8,624 bases of DNA from Candidatus Pacearchaeota archaeon (GTDB taxonomy: Archaea; Nanobdellota; Nanobdellia; Pacearchaeales; GW2011-AR1): positions 1 through 8,624 of the forward strand of contig JAFCDK010000048.1 of NCBI GenBank assembly GCA_017609745.1, given 5' to 3'. Positions 1 to 8,624 of the stretch are shown piece by piece. Made by a program: the position numbers and the translations under genes. Under the pieces are notes generated by a model. It was not told the origin of the DNA and searched no databases. It saw nothing but the letters and a program-made list of their open reading frames with translations. Numbering within the stretch: position 1 is the stretch's first letter; every line of letters starts with the position of its first letter.

Positions 1-940
1 CAAATCTTATTCTATTTCTTTCTTGGATTGCTTTTTTGATTTCTTGAACAGGAGTTTGAGAATTTGCACAACTTTTTGAGGTTGAAGGCTTATTTTCTGT
101 TGTTCCACAATTGTTTAACTCATTACATGTTCGAATTTGTTGTTCATTTGTACAAGGTCCCCACCCTGTACAGTTCCAATCTTCTATACAAACACTAACA
201 GTGCAACTTTGACTTTCAGAAGGCTTATTTTCTGTTGTTCCACAAGAATTTGAATCTGTGCAAGATCTTGTCTGTTGATTGTTTATACAAGTAGACCAAT
301 CAGTACACTGCCAGTTTTCAGTACAAGTAGTATCACTAGTTGGGATTAAGTTTATAGAACTTCGTGAATAAAGAGCTTTTAATGTTGAGATACCAGTGTT
401 TATTGTATCATATCCTTCTTTGATTATTTCCCAACTATAAGTTCCTGTATTCAATCTTTGAACAGCAAATCCCTCTTCATCGGAAAGAGTGCTGGCCACT
501 TCAACTCCTTCGGATAAGAATTTCACTATTGCACCTTCAATAATCTGACCGGTAGTGGAATCTTTAATTGTTATAACATAAGTTCCTTCATTTGCCTCTT
601 GTAAATTAAATGTTAAAGTCTGGTCTGCTTCACCAATGATTACTGTTTTTACTTCCTGTTCAAAGTCTTTTTTGCCTGCTAAAGCTGTGTAAGTTCCAGG
701 ATTGAGTGTAAAAGTAGCTTTTCCTAAAGAATCAACGACTTCTGTACTAATTGTAGTTGTATGGCCTTTATGAAATTCTAATGGGCTATCAACTTGTCCA
801 GAGAGTATTATAATTGCAAGGGACGTAATAGGATTCTCATTCATATCATTAACCGTAACTTCAAGAGTAGATGCAGAAATTAAATTGGTAATTGAAATAA
901 GTATGACCATTACTAACATTAAAACAACTAATTTTTTCAT
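1..940 (-). CDS. Secreted cell-surface protein, 3' end truncated by the window edge: signal peptide, two carboxypeptidase-regulatory-like/PEGA-like beta-sandwich segments, two 45-aa Cys-rich modules
   Basis: Absent from the supplied ORF track because no stop lies in the window. My own translation from the ATG (complement of 938-940) stays open to base 2 (313 codons). It begins MKKLVVLMLVMVILISITNLISAS (Lys-Lys plus hydrophobic core, a Sec-type signal). Then come segments such as GTYVITIKDSTTGQIIEGAIVKFLSEGVEVASTLSDEEGFAVQRLNTGTYSWEIIKEGY, typical of CarboxypepD_reg/PEGA folds. Then come TCTENWQCTDWSTCINNQQTRSCTDSNSCGTTENKPSESQSC and VCIEDWNCTGWGPCTNEQQIRTCNELNNCGTTENKPSTSKSC. Confidence 0.8.
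   Translation of the reverse strand, partial: MKKLVVLMLVMVILISITNLISASTLEVTVNDMNENPITSLAIIILSGQVDSPLEFHKGHTTTISTEVVDSLGKATFTLNPGTYTALAGKKDFEQEVKTVIIGEADQTLTFNLQEANEGTYVITIKDSTTGQIIEGAIVKFLSEGVEVASTLSDEEGFAVQRLNTGTYSWEIIKEGYDTINTGISTLKALYSRSSINLIPTSDTTCTENWQCTDWSTCINNQQTRSCTDSNSCGTTENKPSESQSCTVSVCIEDWNCTGWGPCTNEQQIRTCNELNNCGTTENKPSTSKSCANSQTPVQEIKKAIQERNRIRF
56..325 (-). repeat. In-frame tandem coding repeat, 2 x 135 nt (45 codons), encoding the Cys-rich module, with a 27-nt perfectly identical core
   Basis: GAAGGCTTATTTTCTGTTGTTCCACAA occurs at 84-110 and again at 219-245, an offset of 135 nt or 45 codons. The first Cys codons of the two modules (complements of 188-190 and 323-325) show the same offset. 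The outer boundaries are approximate. Confidence 0.8.
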
Positions 941-1347
941 AAAATAAATATAGAACATGTATTTATAAATCTTATCAAATTCCCAAGCCCACTAGCAAAC
1001 TCACAACAAGTGCGATTGCTATTCCCACTATGACTTCTAAAAGCTTCTAAAAGTGTATGATTAAATTCTCCTCGAATTTCTCTTATATGTATTAAGTCGC
1101 TTATTACAATTATTGCAAAAAATAAGGATACAAAAAACAAGTTGCTAAATTCTTCAAGTAAATAAATACTAAAAACTACTGCAGATACAATAGCTGTATG
1201 TGTGCTGGGCATGCCTCCATATTGTCTGCAGAGGATTTTGAGAATATATTTTTTTCTTTTAACAACAGCAATAAGGAATTTAATAAATTGGGAAATAAGA
1301 AAAGAAAATACTACACTTAATACTATTGGGTTTGTTATGAAAGACAT
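937..1347 (-). CDS. Divergent PAP2 family (YuiD/DUF212-like) integral membrane protein with a frameshifted C-terminus (possible pseudogene or assembly error)
   Basis: GGMPSTHTAIVSAV matches the family signature GGMPSSHSA, and DLIHIREIRGE...NHTLLE parallels B. subtilis YuiD DATGVRRHAGE...GHQPIEV (recalled from memory). After HTLLE the listed frame gives non-hydrophobic residues (AFRSHSGNSNRTCCEF...). The alternative frame gives the expected last helix, VIVGIAIALVVSLLVGLGI, followed by a stop at 975-977. The start lies 6 nt after the eif2g stop. Confidence 0.8.
   Translation of the reverse strand: MSFITNPIVLSVVFSFLISQFIKFLIAVVKRKKYILKILCRQYGGMPSTHTAIVSAVVFSIYLLEEFSNLFFVSLFFAIIVISDLIHIREIRGEFNHTLLEAFRSHSGNSNRTCCEFASGLGNLIRFINTCSIFIL
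962..969 (-). promoter_or_regulatory. TATA-like box TTTATAAA 22-29 nt upstream of the surface-protein ATG (940)
   Basis: The palindromic TTTATAAA at 962-969 lies in the 34-nt stretch between the inferred native PAP2 stop (975-977) and the ATG at 940. AT-rich background makes chance matches common. Confidence 0.35.
1034..1053. repeat. Perfect 10-bp tandem duplication CTTCTAAAAG x2 (plus strand) inside the PAP2-like gene
   Basis: Read directly: 1034-1043 and 1044-1053 are identical and the flanking bases differ. Ten is not a multiple of three, so the duplication shifts the reading frame. Confidence 0.95.
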
Positions 1348-1353
1348 TTCAAA

Positions 1354-2565
1354 TTATAAAACTTCCCCCCACCCAATCAACCTCCAGTGATTGTTAATGT
1401 TTCTGGCAATTCCAATACAATCTCCTTTAAATGAAACAACAGGGATTTTAAGACTGAGTTCAATTTCTTTATTATCTTTGCTTATTTTTTTTATTGTTCC
1501 TACAGTTGTTGTTGTGTTTACTGAGAGCATTAACATTTCAGACATTTTTAATTGGTCTACTTTTTTAGTATTGTCAAGTCCTAAAACTTGTTTAAATAAA
1601 TTTGTTTTTAATTTAATATTCTCTGTTGTGTTGGGAAGCTTATTTGCTAAACCCGCGACTTGTCCTGATAAAGAATCTGCTTTTGCTAATGACATATCTA
1701 ATTGAGTTTCAATTGCTAGACTGCCTCCTGGACCTGCTTGTTCAACACTATATTTTCCTCTATGCATTGAAACTATTTTTGTTTTCAAAGTTTCATTAAT
1801 TTCTTGGTTTTGTTTTATTATTGTAATTCCCGGCTTTATTTCAATCTCATCTCCAATTTTGAGTTCTCCTTTTTTTAATGCTCCTCCTAAAACAGCCCCC
1901 TTAAGTTTGCTTGCATCTGTTCCAGGTTTGTTAATATCAAAACTTCTTGCAATTATGAAAATAGGCTCTGATTTTTCATTTTTTCTTGGAATTTTAAGTT
2001 CACAGAGAATTTCTAAAATTTTATTTATATTAATTCCTTGTTGTGCAGAAACAGGAATTATCTCTGATTTTTCTGCAATTGTGCCTTTAACAAATTCTTT
2101 TATTTCAGCATAATTTTTTTCAGTTTGTTCTTTTGAAACTAAATCTATTTTATTCTGAATAATTATGATATTTTTAACATCTTTAGATTCTAAAGCCATT
2201 AAATGTTCTTTTGTTTGAGGTTTTATGCCTTCATTAGCAGCTATAACTAAAATAGCCGCATCTATAATTGCTACTCCAGAAAGCATTGTTGCCATTAACA
2301 TTTCGTGTCCAGGAGCGTCAACAAATGTAACATAACATTCAGGTTTTCCTTCGCCTTTAATATTATATTCTTTTCCTTTTTTGTATATAACTGCATCTGC
2401 GTAACCTAACTTAATTGTAATTCCTCTTTTAAGTTCTTCAGAATGAATATCTGTCCATTGTCCAGTTAATTGCTGGAGCAAAGTAGTCTTGCCATGATCT
2501 ATATGCCCTACTATGCCAATATTCATTATAGGCAGTTTTGATATGTCTATATTAGGTTTAGCCAT
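1354..2565 (-). CDS. eif2g: Translation initiation factor aIF-2 gamma subunit
   Basis: GTPase motifs GHIDHGKT (G1), DAPGHE (G3) and QNKIDL (G4). There is near-collinear similarity to Pyrococcus aIF2-gamma as I recall it (HSEELKRGITIKLGYADA, PQTKEHLMAL, RSFDINKPGT, GGVLGG-like GAVLGGAL, C-terminal RWRLIGWG). 403 aa. Confidence 0.95.
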   Translation of the reverse strand: MAKPNIDISKLPIMNIGIVGHIDHGKTTLLQQLTGQWTDIHSEELKRGITIKLGYADAVIYKKGKEYNIKGEGKPECYVTFVDAPGHEMLMATMLSGVAIIDAAILVIAANEGIKPQTKEHLMALESKDVKNIIIIQNKIDLVSKEQTEKNYAEIKEFVKGTIAEKSEIIPVSAQQGININKILEILCELKIPRKNEKSEPIFIIARSFDINKPGTDASKLKGAVLGGALKKGELKIGDEIEIKPGITIIKQNQEINETLKTKIVSMHRGKYSVEQAGPGGSLAIETQLDMSLAKADSLSGQVAGLANKLPNTTENIKLKTNLFKQVLGLDNTKKVDQLKMSEMLMLSVNTTTTVGTIKKISKDNKEIELSLKIPVVSFKGDCIGIARNINNHWRLIGWGEVL

Positions 2566-2587
2566 AAATCCATTAGAAATAATAAGG

Positions 2588-2595
2588 TTTTAAAG
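2588..2595 (-). promoter_or_regulatory. TATA-like box (minus strand CTTTAAAA) 23-30 nt upstream of the eif2g ATG (2565)
   Basis: Lies in the 31-nt gap between the 174-aa ORF stop (2597-2599) and eif2g. It could be an internal promoter or a chance match in AT-rich sequence. Confidence 0.3.
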
Positions 2596-2596
2596 T

Positions 2597-3121
2597 TTAT
2601 TGTATAACTGGTAATGCCTGAAGTTTTTTTCTACTTAAATCATCTATAAGCAGAGATTTGTTTATTTTTCTATAAAACTCTGCAGAATCTGAAATATTAC
2701 TTCTTGAATCAAGAGCTTGTCTTATTATTTTTTTATATTCTTCTCCTGTGGTTTCAGCATATTCTAAAAAAGGATTAATTTTTGAATTTATTCCACCATA
2801 TATTATAGCATCTCTACTAAATCTTTCCCATGTTTTTACAAATTCTCGTCTTTTTTGAATTGAATAAGGGTTTCTCTGCACTTCGTCTTTAGCTAATCCG
2901 AGAATTTGTGAATTAAAAATTAATCTTGTTTGAAGATTTTTACCTCTGTCAATTTCTTCTTGTTGTCCTTTTGTTATTAATCCTTCTTCGACAGAATAAG
3001 GAAATGTTAATGTTCTATCAGAAGGAGGATTATTAATTGCATCTTTAATTCTTTTATTGATTGCTTGTTCAGCAAAAAACTTTCTCATTTTCTCTCTATT
3101 ATTTATATTGGCTTTTTTCAT
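2597..3121 (-). CDS. Hypothetical protein, 174 aa, with no family I recognise
   Basis: A long ORF that exactly fills the space between rps6e and eif2g. Its ATG (3119-3121) directly abuts the rps6e stop (3122-3124). The protein is Lys/Arg/Glu-rich and contains no Cys and no His. The only competing ORF is an antisense shadow. Confidence 0.65.
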   Translation of the reverse strand: MKKANINNREKMRKFFAEQAINKRIKDAINNPPSDRTLTFPYSVEEGLITKGQQEEIDRGKNLQTRLIFNSQILGLAKDEVQRNPYSIQKRREFVKTWERFSRDAIIYGGINSKINPFLEYAETTGEEYKKIIRQALDSRSNISDSAEFYRKINKSLLIDDLSRKKLQALPVIQ

Positions 3122-3673
3122 TTACTCTTCACTTTTTTCTTCTGGTTTAGTTTCCTCTTTTATTTTTTGTTTTTCTTCTGGTTTTAATTCTTGTAGTTTT
3201 TCAGTTGTAGTTTCTGCGGGCTTTTTAACTGAGGTTTCAGAACCTTTTTCCTTTTTTCCTTTAACTTGGTCAGGAAAAACTTCAGCCAATGTTTTTTCAC
3301 CTGCTTTAAGAACATTAAAATTAATTTGAACTGTGTCTCCTGAAATTGTATTTCCTCTAACAGATTTTTTCATTCTAAGACCTTTTGGTTTGTTTCTTCC
3401 TTTTTTCTTTTTTCCTTCTTTTTTTGGTTTTTTCTTAAATCCTTTGCTGTATGTGAGTAGAACTTTTCTTAATTCAGTACCTTCTTGGTTTGCAAGTGAT
3501 GGAAAACCTGCTTTATCACTTGCTCCAGTTAATTTTAGTTCATAATTTTTTAAGTCAGGAAGCAGGGTTTCGCCTTTAATATTTTCACCAATTTTCATTC
3601 CAATAAGGTTTTCACTGTCTAATTCAAAATAATATGTTTTTCCTTTTTCTGAGATATTAATTTTAAATACCAC
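3122..3673 (-). CDS. rps6e: 30S ribosomal protein S6e with a Lys-rich internal insertion and a roughly 48-aa K/E/T-rich C-terminal tail
   Basis: FKINISEKGKTYYFELD...LIGMKIGENIKGE...YELKLTGASDKAGFP...VRGNTISGDTVQINFNV follows the archaeal S6e pattern. The start codon is GTG (complement of 3671-3673). At 183 aa it is longer than the roughly 125-135 aa archaeal S6e I recall. Confidence 0.9.
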   Translation of the reverse strand: MVFKINISEKGKTYYFELDSENLIGMKIGENIKGETLLPDLKNYELKLTGASDKAGFPSLANQEGTELRKVLLTYSKGFKKKPKKEGKKKKGRNKPKGLRMKKSVRGNTISGDTVQINFNVLKAGEKTLAEVFPDQVKGKKEKGSETSVKKPAETTTEKLQELKPEEKQKIKEETKPEEKSEE

Positions 3674-3694
3674 GTTTATAATTTGAAGTTTTGG

Positions 3695-3702
3695 TTTTTA
3701 AA
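3695..3702 (-). promoter_or_regulatory. TATA-like box (minus strand TTTAAAAA) 22-29 nt upstream of the rps6e GTG start (3673)
   Basis: Position fits an archaeal TATA at about -26 if the mRNA is leaderless. Lies in the divergent 255-bp intergenic region. Confidence 0.35.
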
Positions 3703-3921
3703 TGTTTAGATTAATGTTCTCTGCTGAAATCCTGTAAAAATTGTTTTTGATTTTTGGAAATTCCCACTATCATCCTCTTTTCATTTGGAACCTCACCCTT
3801 AATTTATATTGTCTTGCTAGATAAATTAATCCAAAACTCAAAAAATTAGATGGTTTCACCAAAGCCAGATTAATGTTCTTTAATAAACTCTTTTCAAAAT
3901 ATATTTTTTAGAATAATAACA

Positions 3922-3927
3922 TTTAAA
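3922..3927 (+). promoter_or_regulatory. TATA-like TTTAAA 26-31 nt upstream of the internal ATG at 3953 of the PagL-like gene
   Basis: If used, the mRNA would be leaderless from ATG 3953 (MKMRPLKK...), which gives a more canonical signal peptide than the ATG at 3929. A second A/T box at about 3897-3909 could instead serve ATG 3929. Confidence 0.3.
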
Positions 3928-3928
3928 T

Positions 3929-4633
3929 ATGGGTTTTATTCTAAACTTTCTTATGAAAATGAGACCATTAAAAAAAACACTGGCCGGATTTTTTGCCCCT
4001 TTAGTAATGACAGCAGGACTTTCACTTAGTGCAGTTAATTCTGCTATAGCAGATGATAATAAATTAGAAACTCAATTACAGAGAAATGAACCCAAAAAAT
4101 GCAGATTAGTTGAAAAAGGAGTTTTAGTTTCTTATGGATATGGAAATGTGAATAATCAAAAAACAGATGGTCCATATGAAGTTAGCTCTGTTATGGGGAG
4201 ACTTGGGTGGGATATTAAACCTTTTGTCGAGGATAAATTACATTTACATCCAAAGGGAAAATTAACTGGATTAGTAGAGCCTTTTACAAGTGCTGTGACA
4301 AGCCCAGATAATAATTTTGAAGTAGGTCTTAATTTACTTGCCAAATATAATTTTAGAAATGAGAATAAAAAACCTGTTAGTTGGTTGGACAAAATTGACC
4401 CATATATTGAGGGGGGATTTGGAGCTATTTATGCTTCACAAGATTTTAAATATCAATCAACAAAAGGCAATTTTCTCGTGCAAGTTGGAGCAGGTTTAGA
4501 TTATAATTTAAATGATGATTTCTTGGTTTTTGTAGGAGTAAGAAGAAGGCATTTTTCAAATGCTAAAATACAACAACCAAATCGTGGAGTTGATATAAAC
4601 CAACTAATTGTTGGAGGAAGTTGGAAATTTTGA
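3929..4633 (+). CDS. PagL-like acyloxyacyl hydrolase / lipid A 3-O-deacylase family outer-membrane beta-barrel homologue with an N-terminal signal peptide
   Basis: The signal is MKMRPLKK plus a hydrophobic core plus AIA/DD. Eight amphipathic strand-like segments are present: GVLVSYGYG, VMGRLGWDI, LTGLVEPFTSAV, FEVGLNLLAKYNF, PYIEGGFGAIYAS, FLVQVGAGLDYNL, FLVFVGVRRRHFS and QLIVGGSWKF. The protein ends in Phe. RRRHFSNAKIQQPNRGVD aligns with P. aeruginosa PagL RAIHYSNAGLKQPNDGIE (recalled), which holds the catalytic His-x-Ser (here His208 at 4550-4552 and Ser210 at 4556-4558). The true start may be 3953. Confidence 0.75.
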   Translation: MGFILNFLMKMRPLKKTLAGFFAPLVMTAGLSLSAVNSAIADDNKLETQLQRNEPKKCRLVEKGVLVSYGYGNVNNQKTDGPYEVSSVMGRLGWDIKPFVEDKLHLHPKGKLTGLVEPFTSAVTSPDNNFEVGLNLLAKYNFRNENKKPVSWLDKIDPYIEGGFGAIYASQDFKYQSTKGNFLVQVGAGLDYNLNDDFLVFVGVRRRHFSNAKIQQPNRGVDINQLIVGGSWKF

Positions 4634-4674
4634 TGTTTTGATATTTAATCTATTATAATTTATTCTAATAATTC

Positions 4675-4682
4675 TTTTATAT
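4675..4682 (+). promoter_or_regulatory. TATA-like TTTTATAT 22-29 nt upstream of the ATG at 4704
   Basis: Lies in the 70-nt T-rich spacer after the PagL-like stop. The oligo-T runs here could also act as an archaeal termination signal. Confidence 0.3.
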
Positions 4683-4703
4683 TCTTTTTCTTATATCTTA
4701 TTT

Positions 4704-5411
4704 ATGAGAGAAAAAGCAGTGAAAAGTTTGGAAAATATTCTTAATGTTGTTACAGGAACAGCATATTCTGATATAAAAGAAGTTTGTCGAGAATTTGAAA
4801 TTTTTTCAGATAAAAAAAAATGCATAAGAAATATTGCTAAGCTTGGTTTTTCTGTAGGTATATCTATTCCACCTTATGTTTTGGTTCATGAGTTTATGCA
4901 TGCTGGTGCTGCTAAATTATTAGGTGCAGATAAAATAAAAATAAGTTTAGATAATTCTGTTGGTGGTGGCTTGCTCGAAAAATTTATGCCGGTCCAAGGA
5001 GAAAATCTGCTTTTTGAAGAAAAATGTTTTGGTTATTGTGATTGGCGGGGGCTAAACAAAGTAGAAGAAACACTTACATTATATGCTCCTTATTTATTAA
5101 CGCCTATTGGAATCTCTATAATGTATGCAGGAATAAGGAAGAAGAATATTTATTTGACTGGTGTTGGAATGTTAGTTGGTATAAAACCACTTTTAGACTT
5201 GGGGTTTAGAGCATCTTTTGATTTGAGCCAATTTGGAATGAATATTTATTATGGTTTGTCAAACTATTTTTTCTTTCCTGAAAATCCTGGAGAAGTTACA
5301 AGAATTGCTTGTATGCTTGGGACTATGGCAGGAACTTATTATGTTAGCAAGAAAATTGTGAAAGGAGTTGGAAGAGGTTTTGAGAGATTAAGAATTAAAA
5401 ATAAACAGTAG
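4704..5411 (+). CDS. HExxH-motif membrane protein, putative zincin-like metallopeptidase (DUF3267-like)
   Basis: HEFMH (4887-4901) lies at the end of a hydrophobic segment: ISIPPYVLVHEFMHAGAAKLLGADKIKISL. Later hydrophobic segments include LYAPYLLTPIGISIMYAG and YLTGVGMLVGIKPLL. This layout resembles the HELxHxxxxxxxG-plus-LAP arrangement I recall for DUF3267. There is no signal peptide. Confidence 0.55.
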   Translation: MREKAVKSLENILNVVTGTAYSDIKEVCREFEIFSDKKKCIRNIAKLGFSVGISIPPYVLVHEFMHAGAAKLLGADKIKISLDNSVGGGLLEKFMPVQGENLLFEEKCFGYCDWRGLNKVEETLTLYAPYLLTPIGISIMYAGIRKKNIYLTGVGMLVGIKPLLDLGFRASFDLSQFGMNIYYGLSNYFFFPENPGEVTRIACMLGTMAGTYYVSKKIVKGVGRGFERLRIKNKQ

Positions 5412-5423
5412 AATCAAGATTAC

Positions 5424-6005
5424 TTAATTTTTGTATATCATCAGATATTTTTCCAACAAGTTTTTCAATTGACATTTTTCCAAAAAATCTTGGTTCTCCA
5501 AATCTAATAATTGCAAGTTTTTTGGAATTGGAAGAAACGACGCATGTTTTTTAAAATAATATAATCTTGAATATTCTAAACCTGCAGGAACTAAAGATAT
5601 TGGTGTTGAAAGTTTTTCCTGCATTTGCTCAAAATATTTAAATGGATTGATATTTAATTTGCTCATTTTTTTTGCATTAATTTTACCTTCTGGAAACATT
5701 ATAATAAGTTCATTATTTTGTAAATAATCTTCAATTTTTGCATATGATTCTCTATTTATTTGTTTTGCAATTTGTTTTGCTTTTTCTCTTCCTATCTTTT
5801 CACTTAATTTTTCAAAATCTTTACGAGTTACAAATTTAATTCCCCCAACACTTTCTAACCAGCTTGGTAAAGTAGATTTTGCAAAAAAACTGCAATATCT
5901 CTTAGTTTTTGTTTTAATATAATATGCAGAAAGTAATCCATCAACATATGACCGATGTTTTGGGAGAATAATAGCAGGACCATTTTTTATAAAAAACATG
6001 AGCAA
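5424..6005 (-). CDS. PlsC/LPLAT-family acyltransferase (1-acyl-sn-glycerol-3-phosphate acyltransferase-like), C-terminal main part
   Basis: All four acyltransferase blocks are present: H-RSYV-D (HxxxxD), GGIKFVTR (GxxFxxR), MFPEG (FPEG) and ISLVPAGL (hydrophobic-Pro block). The listed start is TTG, and HxxxxD sits only 17 residues from it. That is too close for a complete fold and implies a missing N-terminus (see 5941-6129). Confidence 0.75.
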   Translation of the reverse strand: MLMFFIKNGPAIILPKHRSYVDGLLSAYYIKTKTKRYCSFFAKSTLPSWLESVGGIKFVTRKDFEKLSEKIGREKAKQIAKQINRESYAKIEDYLQNNELIIMFPEGKINAKKMSKLNINPFKYFEQMQEKLSTPISLVPAGLEYSRLYYFKKHASFLPIPKNLQLLDLENQDFLEKCQLKNLLEKYLMIYKN

Positions 6006-6129
6006 GATTAAGTGCTGTGCTTATAGAATTATATAAAAAATAATTTCTATTGTCTTTAAAAAGTTTGTTAGATTCAATTTGAGAATTATTTTGTTTTTTT
6101 TGTAATAAATGTTTTTCAAGAGAGTTCAT
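5941..6129 (-). pseudogene. Probable N-terminal fragment of the same acyltransferase in another frame (gene split by a frameshift)
   Basis: The 62-aa ORF overlaps the start of the 193-aa ORF. Removing one base from either homopolymer at 5983-5996 (plus strand TTTTTTATAAAAAA) joins ...NSISTALNLAHVF to IKNGPAIILPKHRSYVDG. The result is a continuous 234-aa protein with HxxxxD near residue 58, which is typical spacing for PlsC. Confidence 0.5.
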
Positions 6130-6152: not shown

Positions 6153-6160
6153 AAATTATA
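6153..6160 (-). promoter_or_regulatory. TATA-like box (minus strand TATAATTT) 24-31 nt upstream of the ATG at 6129, overlapping the radical SAM stop codon
   Basis: The gap between the radical SAM stop and the acyltransferase-fragment ATG is only 26 nt. Co-transcription without this box is equally plausible. Confidence 0.25.
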
Positions 6161-7616
6161 ATCTTTCTTCTAATCCAAAATTAACTAAACATTCTTTATA
6201 ATTTCTTGCATTTTCACATACAGCCTCGTAGATTGGACCAGATACACACTGCTCTGCGCCTTTATATGAACCATGAACATTATGTTTTTCTACAATATTC
6301 TTTAATGTTTCAGGATTATCAACATAAGGGCAGGGGGCTAATAAGTTTTTATTAAAAGGCTGTTTTGTTCTTGCATCTTTTAACCAATCTGCGGTCATAC
6401 ATTCTGTCAATGTTTTATCATATAAATTATCTTTTGAAAAAGGAATAAAAGCACAAGGTTCAAGTTCTGCATTAGCATTTATATGAGCATATATTTTCCC
6501 CCATCCAATACATCCTCCTGTAATTCCCCCATCGTTCCAGAAATCATATAATGCCATTTGTTTTTTATCTTGTCTTATTTTTTTAAGTAAATCATATCTT
6601 TGTATTCTTTGTTCAGGAGTAGGAATTATTTCAGGATTAGGGTTTCTTCCAACAGCAGTATATTGGAAAAGCCAGCCAATACGAGCACCTCTTTCAATTA
6701 GCTCATCAAAATATTGTTCATTTACTACAGAATCATGATTTTGTTTAGTATGAACTGCTGAGATTCCGAAAAAAACTCCCCTATCTTTTAAACGAGCCAT
6801 AGCATCCATCACTTTATCATAGACTCCTTTGCCTCTAAAATACTCTGTTGCTTGTTTATCACCAGATAAACTAAAACATGGATAAAAATTTCCAAGTTCT
6901 GCTATTTTATCTGCCATTTGGTCGTTAATTAAAGTTCCATTTGTATAAGGCATAAATGCAATATCATTATGTTCTTCAAGCATATTATAAAGATAAGGAA
7001 GCATTGTTGGTTCTCCACCTGTTAAAACAATAAAATGTATTCCCATTTCTTTTTTAGCTTCATTTAAAATTTCATTTACTTTTTTTTCAGGTATTGTAAT
7101 ACCTTTTTGATGTTCTGCCCAGCAACCTTGACATTTTAAATTACAATTCATTGAAGGACTCATAAGAAGAAATTGCGGCGGAAGTTCTCCATGTTTTTTT
7201 TCATATTGTTCTGCAATTTCTGTTCTTTCGAGTGTCTGACGATAAAACAAATTTTCAATTAATTTTAATCTTGTTTGATTATTAAGTTCTGGAAGAGTTT
7301 GTTTTATAACATTTGAGAAAGAACTACAAGATTGTAATTTTCTTTCAACCTGCTCTGGACTCCAGCCATATTTTTTACCACTTTCCTGTATTTTTGAAAG
7401 ATATTTGTTTCTTGCTATATCAATAAGGCTACCTTGATATTTTACAGGAATCTTGGGAAAAAGAGGCAATGCTGCTTTTATTCCCCCTTTAACAATTGAT
7501 TTTCTTATTAAACTAAAAATTTTAGACCCATTCCTATTAGTGTTTTTTTTAATTAATTCTGGTTCTACAAATTCAACTTTTTTTTCAAGTTCTATTGCTA
7601 GCCCTTCTTTTGCCAT
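6156..7616 (-). CDS. Radical SAM enzyme, 486 aa, with a roughly 150-aa N-terminal extension and a Cys-containing C-terminal auxiliary region
   Basis: The motif C158-x3-C162-x2-C165 (MNCNLKCQGCWA, nt 7122-7145) is followed by the GGE SAM-binding motif (LTGGEPTM). The C-terminal region GGCIGWGKIYAHINANAELEPCAF...LLAPCPYVDNPE carries further Cys at residues 369, 388, 406, 429, 457, 467 and 476, consistent with an auxiliary Fe-S (SPASM/twitch-like) domain. Confidence 0.85.
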   Translation of the reverse strand: MAKEGLAIELEKKVEFVEPELIKKNTNRNGSKIFSLIRKSIVKGGIKAALPLFPKIPVKYQGSLIDIARNKYLSKIQESGKKYGWSPEQVERKLQSCSSFSNVIKQTLPELNNQTRLKLIENLFYRQTLERTEIAEQYEKKHGELPPQFLLMSPSMNCNLKCQGCWAEHQKGITIPEKKVNEILNEAKKEMGIHFIVLTGGEPTMLPYLYNMLEEHNDIAFMPYTNGTLINDQMADKIAELGNFYPCFSLSGDKQATEYFRGKGVYDKVMDAMARLKDRGVFFGISAVHTKQNHDSVVNEQYFDELIERGARIGWLFQYTAVGRNPNPEIIPTPEQRIQRYDLLKKIRQDKKQMALYDFWNDGGITGGCIGWGKIYAHINANAELEPCAFIPFSKDNLYDKTLTECMTADWLKDARTKQPFNKNLLAPCPYVDNPETLKNIVEKHNVHGSYKGAEQCVSGPIYEAVCENARNYKECLVNFGLEERL

Positions 7617-7754: not shown

Positions 7755-8624
7755 ATGGTTGAAGAAACTAAAGATTTAAAGGAGGGATATTTTAAGAGTT
7801 TTGATGATTCGCAGATTTATTATAATTTATATAATTCTAAATTTGATAAACCTTTTGTAACATTTGTTCATGGACATTCTGGAGGAAATTTTACGATGTT
7901 TAATCATCAAATTGAAGCTGTATCTAAAGATTATAATGTTCTTGCTTTTGATTTGCGCGGAGGTGGAAGATCTGAATTAAGTAATGGAAAAAAAGATTTT
8001 TACAGTTTAGAGAATTTTGCGAGAGATACTCTTGGTTTAATGGAGCATCTTGAAATAGAAAGAACACATCTATTAGGTTATAGTTTAGGCACAACAATTG
8101 CTCTTAAAGTCTTTGATATGCAACCAGAGGTTATCGATTCATTAATTTTACTGAATCCTACATATAATCTATTAGGAAATACTTGTTTAATAAATCAGAT
8201 GATTGTTCGTAGTGGTTTATGCTCTATTTTAGAACATTCTATTAATTATACTGCAGCTTTTATAAATAAATTAAAAGGTGTTGAACCAACACTCTTTGAT
8301 TATTTAAATGTTAGGGGAGAAAATTCATATATTAATTTCACTTTTTTAAAAACAAGAACTCCTGAAGAATTAATGTCAAGATTAAATCTTGTTAAAAATC
8401 GTATTAAATGGAATATAGAAGAAGTTATTGATAAAATTGATGTTCCTTTATTTTGTATTAGCGGAAGCAAGGATATATGGACTATGCCTTCTGCTGCTAA
8501 AGAAATTGTACAAAGAGCAAAAACAGACAGTGAAGCAGTAATTATTGAGGGAAATGGGCATGCAGCTCTTTATTTAAATCCAGAACCAATTACTAAAGAA
8601 GTTTTAGATTTTTTAAAAAGGCAA
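7755..8624 (+). CDS. Alpha/beta-fold hydrolase (esterase/lipase-type Ser-Asp-His enzyme), 3' end runs off the window
   Basis: Absent from the ORF track because no stop lies in the window. My translation from ATG 7755 is open for 290 codons: MVEETKDLKEGYF...FVTFVHGHSGG (HG oxyanion motif), LLGYSLGTTIAL (GxSxG nucleophile elbow), FCISGSKDIW (Asp) and EGNGHAALY (His). Confidence 0.85.
   Translation, partial: MVEETKDLKEGYFKSFDDSQIYYNLYNSKFDKPFVTFVHGHSGGNFTMFNHQIEAVSKDYNVLAFDLRGGGRSELSNGKKDFYSLENFARDTLGLMEHLEIERTHLLGYSLGTTIALKVFDMQPEVIDSLILLNPTYNLLGNTCLINQMIVRSGLCSILEHSINYTAAFINKLKGVEPTLFDYLNVRGENSYINFTFLKTRTPEELMSRLNLVKNRIKWNIEEVIDKIDVPLFCISGSKDIWTMPSAAKEIVQRAKTDSEAVIIEGNGHAALYLNPEPITKEVLDFLKRQ

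Follow-up and report, generated by a model that had tools for sequence, protein, structure and literature searches.

A PagL-family beta-barrel of outer-membrane type encoded in a Pacearchaeota-like archaeal lineage

Beta-barrel outer-membrane proteins are regarded as a hallmark of double-membraned bacteria and of their organelle descendants, and the beta-barrel assembly machinery (BAM) that inserts them reads an aromatic beta-signal pattern at their C-terminus. Lipid A, a bacterial lipid, is the only known substrate of the family member PagL, an outer-membrane serine esterase that normally removes a fatty acid from lipopolysaccharide, and no archaeon is known to have lipid A, BAM or a lipopolysaccharide-bearing outer membrane. 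The PagL of Pseudomonas aeruginosa, a lipid A 3-O-deacylase (structure 2ERV, Pfam PF09411), consists of a signal peptide followed by an 8-stranded barrel. Catalysis by PagL relies on a Ser-His-Glu triad, and a conserved Asn forms part of the oxyanion hole (PMC4402001, a review). Here we describe a PagL-family gene in an 8,624-nucleotide stretch of DNA ('the window'; contig JAFCDK010000048.1 of assembly GCA_017609745.1), where it is transcribed divergently from the gene for the archaeal/eukaryotic-type ribosomal protein S6e. The PagL family is already known, and the novelty lies in the host: since neither a bacterial outer membrane nor a lipopolysaccharide lipid is known from archaea, the cellular setting usual for the family ought to be missing here. 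In the literature that we searched, no paper links PagL with the DPANN archaea, and the sole paper combining 'acyloxyacyl hydrolase' with 'archaeon' appears to concern a planctomycete.

The 234-residue open reading frame (ORF) that a first-pass annotation had read as a PagL-like deacylase is present and matches Pfam PagL (PF09411) with 63.1 bits (E = 3.9e-17, cut-off 23) over profile positions 4-134 of 136, and it passes marginally for OMP_b-brl (PF13505; 29.1 bits against a cut-off of 28.7). When a profile built from the window protein and seven relatives was searched against the sequences of the PDB, the sole meaningful match was 2ERV (2erv_A, E = 2.1e-11). An AlphaFold2 model built on an alignment of eight sequences (mean predicted local distance difference test score (pLDDT) 78, predicted template modelling score 0.70) leads from an N-terminal helix through a disordered linker into exactly eight long strands, at residues 49-63, 73-85, 101-115, 119-131, 146-159, 170-183, 188-200 and 211-223 counted from Met11, with most blocks of the barrel at pLDDT 86-95. 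In a Foldseek comparison of this model with the PDB, 2ERV was again the top match (E = 2.7e-8, target-normalised template modelling (TM) score 0.71), so that P. aeruginosa PagL leads by fold as well as by sequence; OmpW, OprG, NspA, OmpA and OmpX follow. These small barrels (OmpA by its N-domain) share the overall fold at E = 3e-7 to 1e-4, but they lack the catalytic His-Ser-Asn block, are only 12-14% identical to the window protein and have TM scores below that of PagL, except for NspA (0.75, target-normalised, with a weaker E-value). With profile score, fold, catalytic block and signal peptide all in agreement, it is near certain that the ORF product belongs to the PagL family.

The residues of the active site were located with the 2ERV profile alignment. 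The motif RRRHFSNAKIQQPNRG is present in the window protein, with H208, S210 and N211 falling on the HYSNA of PagL and D222 on the Glu of GIES; these residues pair with 2ERV positions 126, 128, 129 and 140, which we take, from the alignment coordinates, to be H126, S128, N129 and E140. The same alignment pairs RRRHFSNAKIQQPNRGVD with RAIHYSNAGLKQPNDGIE, PYIEGGFGAIYA with PFIEAGIGVA (PYIEGGFG with PFIEAGIG) and QVGAGLDY with RIGAGLKF. The PagL strings that the first-pass annotation had quoted, its His-x-Ser-Asn block included, were therefore correct. In an alignment of 59 family members H208, S210, N211, N218 and G220 are invariant (59/59), and position 222 is occupied by D in 29, by N in 21 and by E in 7. 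Retention of a Ser-His-acid triad and of the oxyanion Asn in the window protein is thus strongly supported by the alignment, with Asp, the commonest residue at this position in this branch of the family, standing in for the triad Glu of P. aeruginosa PagL. The two proteins differ further in that they are only 23-24% identical, that the mature window protein has about 190 residues versus 150, and that its signal peptide is followed by an extra polar linker (about 17 residues) and one of its loops by 8 residues longer through an insertion. Above all, the host of the window protein is an archaeon without known lipid A, outer membrane or BAM.

The features expected of an exported barrel are likewise in place. 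As read from the sequence, the signal peptide combines a basic N-terminus, a hydrophobic core and a cleavage-type site between AIA and DD; it is kept in the relatives, and in the AlphaFold2 model the segment forms a helix (residues 2-27) of low pLDDT. The terminal Phe (F234), like the whole GxxWxF motif that it closes, is invariant in the four archaeal members of the family described below, and F, Y or W is the last residue in 96 of 137 full-length family hits. The strands have a lipid-facing side of mean Kyte-Doolittle hydropathy +1.08 and an inner side of -0.66 in the archaeal proteins, compared with +1.38 and -0.50 in the bacterial ones; because the faces were assigned by strand parity in the model, with beta-bulges ignored, this result is supportive only. 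The signal peptide, the eight strands and the C-terminal Phe noticed in the first reading of the sequence all survive this analysis, and it is strongly supported that the protein has retained a Sec signal peptide, an amphipathic barrel, a His-Ser-Asn-acid site and a C-terminal aromatic signature.

We next consider whether the gene belongs to the archaeon on whose contig it was found. The identical protein is recorded twice, on the NCBI contig (8625 bp) and on a JGI contig of 5063 bp (L001). The latter has the same join between S6e and PagL and is 99.6% identical to window positions 45-5117, the differences being 10 mismatches and a single indel (about 10 bp); it is therefore a separately assembled variant. 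Situated close to the 3' end of the gene for DUF212, the indel changes the called length of the gene product from 136 aa to 120 aa. A search of 15 billion sequences returned three further archaeal PagL proteins, 73%, 62% and 57% identical to the window protein, so that the clade is represented by four archaeal sequences from short metagenomic contigs of 1-9 kb. One of them, P0003, is encoded on contig CAZRVO010000033.1 (L002) of assembly GCA_964603565.1, where PagL is again divergent from S6e; the assembly also encodes the gamma subunit of archaeal initiation factor 2 (aIF2-gamma), 83% identical to that of the window. Another, P0004 on a JGI contig (L003), has the first 66 codons of S6e (78% identical) to one side and, to the other, a PlsC-type acyltransferase and a radical S-adenosylmethionine (SAM) protein, 52% and 72% identical to the window genes. 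L002 and L003 both show nucleotide homology to the window on either side of the spacer. The gene is thus carried by related archaeal genomes, two of them with PagL adjoining S6e, as the first-pass annotation had proposed to look for.

Composition tells the same story. The GC content at third codon positions (GC3) is 0.16 in the PagL gene and 0.11-0.19 in seven neighbours in the window, in keeping with the AT-rich codon style that the first-pass annotation had ascribed to PagL, S6e and aIF2-gamma. Its concern that a tetranucleotide break might betray a chimaera is answered by the correlation of r = 0.82 between the left and right halves of the window; the halves correlate at 0.79-0.85 with other Pacearchaeota-like contigs and at about 0 with a high-GC bacterial contig. 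The contig is archaeal, as had been claimed: S6e and aIF2-gamma score 90 bits with Pfam and 496 bits with NCBIfam, respectively, and the named homologues of aIF2-gamma, among the matches listed, are all from Candidatus Pacearchaeota or Nanoarchaeota (65-67% identity). Judged by these relatives, the host is a Pacearchaeota-like DPANN archaeon. A scan for sigma-70 promoters stayed at chance level, as expected for an archaeon. The description of a divergent promoter region common to PagL, S6e and aIF2-gamma needs correction in one part: PagL is indeed divergent from S6e, but aIF2-gamma is the second gene after S6e along the strand that the two share. It is very unlikely that the join is chimeric, and synteny in diverged genomes, host-like composition, a TATA box and the lineage of aIF2-gamma make PagL a resident archaeal gene.

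The four archaeal genes share an upstream block, ATATATTTTTTAGAATAA..ATTTAAATA, the end of which is a consensus archaeal TATA box, TTTAAATA in the window and GTTTAAGTA as a variant in L003. The box stands 30-37 nt 5' of the start codon in the window and in the fourth locus (L004), and 68 nt in L002. No Shine-Dalgarno sequence precedes the start in the four archaeal genes. Met11 of the window ORF is the start Met in all three relatives by sequence alignment, the start codon of L004 included, and the first ATG (3929) overlaps the TATA box (3922-3929); for these reasons the coding sequence most likely begins at Met11 (3959). The spacer to S6e would then be about 285 bp, rather than the 255 bp given at first. 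The window and L004 lack a stretch of about 35 nt that is found between TATA box and start in L002 (~1005-1052) and L003 (~386-433); it contains the inverted repeat CTTGTAAA-TTTTT-TTACAAG and may be a leader hairpin or a regulatory element.

Within the archaeal clade Ka/Ks ranges from 0.32 to 0.60 (Nei-Gojobori), and the gene is under purifying selection. Synonymous divergence is probably underestimated, and the constraint on PagL is therefore, if anything, stronger. From the TATA box, the Ka/Ks values and the retained hydrophobic face we infer that the gene relies on archaeal signals for its expression, and that its product has been preserved as a membrane-type barrel whose active site is intact.

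To place the archaeal proteins within the family we relied on an exhaustive profile search, since word-indexed homologue searches gave only 4, then 8 proteins. Against 1.84 billion cluster representatives it returned 639 family members at E <= 1e-3 and six at E <= 1e-30, with the whole archaeal clade forming a single 50% cluster. The next-best match after the clade is P0010 (E = 2e-56, 47% identity), encoded on a 5.5-kb contig of 39% GC (L012) amid genes for a PAP2 protein, a tyrosyl-tRNA synthetase (tyrS) and a FadD-like long-chain fatty-acid-CoA ligase. The synthetase is of bacterial type (TIGR00234, 382 bits versus 105 bits for the archaeal-type model), and from these bacterial-type neighbours the host of P0010 is judged to be a bacterium. 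The PAP2 membrane phosphatase and the ligase (L012:1162-2058 and 4454-5533) give the bacterial sister gene a lipid-metabolism setting; DUF212 in the window is a divergent PAP2 too, but lies 2.6 kb from PagL on the other strand. The closest named relatives are 'acyloxyacyl hydrolases' of Candidatus Omnitrophota, among them P0007 and P0015 (about 30-37% identical), which belong with P0010 to the same sub-branch of the family as the window protein. P0010 also shares the diagnostic 8-residue insertion, but ends in Arg rather than Phe, and this bacterial group differs from the archaeal genes in having Shine-Dalgarno sequences (AAAGAGGAGGAAG ahead of the ATG in L012), a higher GC3 (0.35 in L012) and bacterial gene surroundings.

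In a distance-based neighbour-joining tree of 59 sequences the archaeal four are monophyletic in 100 of 100 bootstraps and group with the bacterial P0010 and P0279 in 50 of 100. The bootstraps were counted on unrooted splits and are independent of the root; the drawing was rooted with P. aeruginosa PagL, whose sequence is verified for residues 67-142 through the 2ERV alignment. The loop insertion N144-S151 supports the grouping with P0010 and P0279 independently of the tree, as its columns are occupied in only 6-16 of the 59 sequences and its core is filled only in these six. The gene context of the next branch, P0030, offers no clear lineage marker. Among GTDB species-representative genomes, a scan with the clade alignment gave only a weak match in Phycisphaerae and no clade member; of two scans of metagenome contigs the first was empty and the second gave three weak partial matches (28-42%) outside the clade, the source samples seemingly not being in the collection. 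A more distant Pacearchaeota-like relative (L010, a 141-kb contig with aIF2-gamma 69% identical) has the order hemerythrin, S6e, M24 peptidase, aIF2-gamma, and no PagL alongside S6e and aIF2-gamma on that contig.

Most simply, these data would be read as one transfer, by which the ancestor of a small archaeal clade received the gene from a bacterium. An archaeal clade nested among bacterial PagL proteins, together with the shared insertion, makes it near certain that the gene was acquired horizontally and is by now old and domesticated in its archaeal host. Horizontal acquisition, put forward in the first-pass annotation, is accordingly borne out by the nested position of the clade (itself monophyletic in 100/100), by the insertion common to it and P0010 and P0279 and by the ameliorated GC3.

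Table 1. Coordinates of the PagL gene, its parts and its neighbours in the window (residue numbers from Met1 unless stated otherwise).
Feature	Coordinates	Strand	Evidence and remarks
PagL-family protein, maximal ORF	3929..4633	+	234 aa + stop; Pfam PagL and OMP_b-brl matches
Likeliest real coding sequence of the PagL gene, from Met11	3959..4633	+	224 aa + stop
Conserved archaeal-type promoter block, ending in TATA box TTTAAATA (3922-3929)	3896..3929	+	Four loci
Sec-type signal peptide, Met11-Ala41 (MRPLKKTLAGFFAPLVMTAGLSLSAVNSAIA, then DD)	3959..4051	+	Sequence reading, model helix, conservation
Predicted eight-stranded beta-barrel body, residues 59-233	4103..4627	+	AlphaFold2, Foldseek
8-residue loop insertion N144-S151	4358..4381	+	Common only to the archaeal four and bacterial P0010/P0279
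Catalytic block H208-F-S210-N211 ... N218-R-G220-V-D222	4550..4594	+	2ERV alignment, family conservation
C-terminal strand ending G-G-S-W-K-F (Gxx-aromatic-x-Phe), BAM-type beta-signal pattern	4610..4630	+	
Secreted protein, open at left end	2-940	-	Signal peptide; CarboxypepD_reg 44 bits
DUF212 (divergent PAP2)	937-1347	-	Pfam 67.6 bits
aIF2-gamma, lineage marker	1354..2565	-	NCBIfam PRK04000 495.8 bits, cut-off 315
174-aa protein, no family	2597-3121	-	
Ribosomal protein S6e (archaeal/eukaryotic type), divergent neighbour	3122..3673	-	Pfam Ribosomal_S6e 90.1 bits
Hydrophobic protein with HExxH motif (VHEFMH)	4704..5411	+	68% identical to L002:3032-3508
PlsC-type acyltransferase, apparently frameshift-split	5424..6129	-	ORFs 5424-6005 and 5941-6129; Pfam Acyltransferase 39 bits
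Radical SAM gene	6156-7616		SPASM/twitch maturase matches, generic
Alpha/beta-hydrolase, open at right end	7755-8624	+	Abhydrolase_1 70 bits; GYSLG nucleophile elbow

The remaining genes of the window (Table 1) add the following observations. The secreted protein at the left end contains two Cys-rich repeats (C-x-E/D-x-W-x-C-T-x-W-x-x-C...CGTTENKPS) and has the look of a surface or adhesin-type protein. The S6e proteins of the clade are 183-196 aa long (window; L002:274-864, minus strand), with a long Lys/Glu-rich C-terminal tail past the domain of about 125 aa, and the S6e of the more distant L010 has just 134 aa. The HExxH protein gave only a weak Peptidase_M50B-like match (E = 0.03) and no sequence match in the PDB, and its single-sequence AlphaFold2 model is unusable (pLDDT 33). 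Compared with the intact 263-aa homologue in L003, the two acyltransferase ORFs correspond to residues 1-44 (5941-6129) and 55-208 (5424-6005), with the alignment lost past about residue 159 of the window ORF, so that the gene has either become a pseudogene through a frameshift or been misassembled. The radical SAM gene was considered as a tetraether-synthase-like enzyme and rejected, as its SPASM/twitch matches are generic and no tetraether synthase is among its PDB hits. The alpha/beta-hydrolase is another possible esterase or lipase near PagL. Rfam and tRNA scans of the window gave no matches.

The site just 3' of PagL is variable. It holds no gene in the window (4634-4703), the gene of a barrel-like 386-aa protein in L002 and L004 (L002:1737-3031) and an unrelated 312-aa signal-peptide protein in L003 (L003:1118-2140); the HExxH gene follows in the window and in L002, and was not seen on the L003 contig. 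The 386-aa protein of L002 (1762-2922, plus strand), whose N-terminal part has a homologue in L004 (759-1082, plus strand; 60% identical), starts with a Sec signal peptide, and its last residues, ...GIGTGISFKF, resemble an outer-membrane beta-signal. It gave no match in Pfam, NCBIfam or the PDB, its hhalign probability against PagL is 5.7%, and its dyad-hydrophobicity signal is only about 1.4 standard deviations above shuffles; judged by its sequence, it is a possible second barrel. In more distant relatives (L010:665-8100, L007:3248-4372), S6e or aIF2-gamma has phage-type integrases and a Rep_1 replication protein beside it, which suggests a hot spot of mobile-element integration in this neighbourhood and possibly bears on the arrival of PagL.

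What might such an enzyme do in an archaeon? We propose that the PagL-family product is catalytically competent, is exported through the archaeal Sec system and would insert into a lipid surface without BAM; small 8-stranded barrels do fold into lipid or detergent in vitro without it. Once inserted, it would hydrolyse ester-linked acyl chains. As the likeliest substrate we regard lipid A, which would lose its 3-O-acyl chain, or some related ester lipid that a bacterial partner or prey carries in its outer membrane. The envelope of that partner would be loosened or remodelled as a result, or fatty acids would be freed for a lipid-scavenging symbiont. Since ester-linked acyl lipids, and lipid A especially, are bacterial, the envelope of a bacterial partner is the most economical substrate. 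Such a target also fits what has been published on related archaea: modular peptidoglycan hydrolases are especially prominent in Nanoarchaeota (PMC12352652), Woesearchaeota, which co-occur with Omnitrophica, encode pore-forming toxins as well as murein transglycosylases (PMC9723730), and the abundance of Pacearchaeota correlates with bacterial communities (PMC6349945). As we propose for the window protein, these envelope enzymes and toxins, which DPANN and other archaea acquired from bacteria, are secreted, of bacterial type and directed at an envelope substrate, and have been read as instruments of antagonism or parasitism (PMC12352652, PMC9723730). They are, however, alpha-helical toxins or soluble modular hydrolases with peptidoglycan as substrate, whereas the window protein would be an integral-membrane barrel with a lipid substrate.

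The identity of the protein, its transfer and its maintenance are near certain, and the target is the weak step. For the mechanism as a whole, in which an esterase is exported and attacks the ester-linked lipids of a bacterial partner, lipid A for instance, we see even prospects of its being right. Several points weigh against it. Both the localisation and the substrate of the product are inferred. The active site of PagL normally reaches lipid A from within the same membrane, and we know of no archaeon for which transfer to, and BAM-free insertion into, a foreign membrane is documented. The C-terminal beta-signal could have been retained as a folding requirement of the barrel only. Many family members are annotated generically as 'acyloxyacyl hydrolase' without a tested substrate, which makes lipid A specificity an extrapolation from an enzyme of 23-24% identity. 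The clade comprises a mere four sequences, each from a short metagenomic contig; the alignment behind the structural model is shallow; and Nei-Gojobori Ka/Ks is crude at a GC3 of about 0.15. Finally, the cultivated DPANN archaea have archaeal hosts, according to PMC11291902. A more specific form of the proposal, in which Pacearchaeota-like DPANN archaea use the barrel as an effector that deacylates lipid A of a bacterial host or prey, we hold to be tentative and somewhat unlikely. The barrel, possibly together with the neighbouring candidate barrel of L002 and L004, would here enter the outer membrane of the partner either spontaneously or by way of the partner's own BAM, which would read the retained C-terminal signal.

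Other explanations place the activity at home. A surface esterase could trim the scavenged ester lipids of a lipid-auxotrophic archaeon in concert with a PlsC-type acyltransferase, a PAP2-like phosphatase and an alpha/beta-hydrolase, all of which are encoded in the window (39, 67.6 and 70 bits); L003 keeps the order PagL, one gene, acyltransferase, radical SAM, and a PAP2 protein and a fatty-acid-CoA ligase flank the bacterial sister gene. However, the lipid genes of the window lie on different strands in no obvious operon, its acyltransferase looks frameshifted, the gene adjoining PagL varies among the window, L002 and L003, and archaeal membranes are built of ether lipids, ester lipids not being known for these organisms; such self-directed remodelling is unlikely in our judgement. 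It is very unlikely that the archaeon has an outer membrane of its own with bacterial-type beta-barrels, PagL being a resident. To our knowledge, no double membrane has been reported for Pacearchaeota, and the outer membranes of Ignicoccus and Altiarchaeum are not known to use BAM-type barrels. The contigs examined, which cover only a few kb of each genome, showed none of the BamA, Lpt or Lpx genes, and the 386-aa neighbour, for all that it is a signal-peptide protein ending in GISFKF and encoded next to PagL in L002 and L004, has no Pfam or PDB match and an hhalign probability of 5.7%. The beta-signal-like C-terminus and the lipid-facing hydrophobic surface of PagL would nevertheless suit such a membrane, as would the nearest published hint of an archaeal protein of this type, a possible distant relative of the outer-membrane protein PopA in double-membraned Altiarchaeales (PMC12228718).

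Could the gene instead be a neutral or decaying relic of its transfer, without function? Horizontal transfer into DPANN archaea is frequent, the clade is small and the neighbouring acyltransferase is seemingly decaying, but PagL itself has an intact frame in four lineages at 58-73% identity with every catalytic residue invariant, Ka/Ks is below 1 in every pair, the promoter is conserved and codon usage is fully ameliorated, which leaves this account highly improbable. The suspicion that a bacterial fragment was joined to an archaeal contig during assembly or binning arises naturally from the metagenomic origin of the sequences and from a gene family that is otherwise bacterial. It is effectively refuted: the same join recurs in independently assembled, diverged sequences from NCBI, JGI and ENA, GC3 and tetranucleotide usage run through it without a break, the promoter is of archaeal type, and synteny with the same relatives extends to the genes on the right (HExxH protein, acyltransferase, radical SAM).

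A PagL fixed in an archaeal lineage raises the questions of how a BAM-type barrel folds and finds a membrane in an archaeon, and of whether some Pacearchaeota physically contact Gram-negative bacteria. The hosts of most DPANN lineages are, as far as we know, still unknown, and an enzyme directed at lipid A, if that is what it is, would be a molecular pointer to bacterial partners of these archaea and would add the outer membrane to peptidoglycan as a part of the bacterial envelope against which archaea carry weapons. Should the protein be an effector, it would have no known precedent among archaeal proteins in targeting the Gram-negative outer membrane, it would be the first functional archaeal barrel of outer-membrane type, and it would provide genomic evidence of some DPANN archaea living on bacteria. 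If, on the other hand, the archaeon's own scavenged lipids are the substrate, the finding bears on how lipid-auxotrophic symbionts handle foreign ester lipids.

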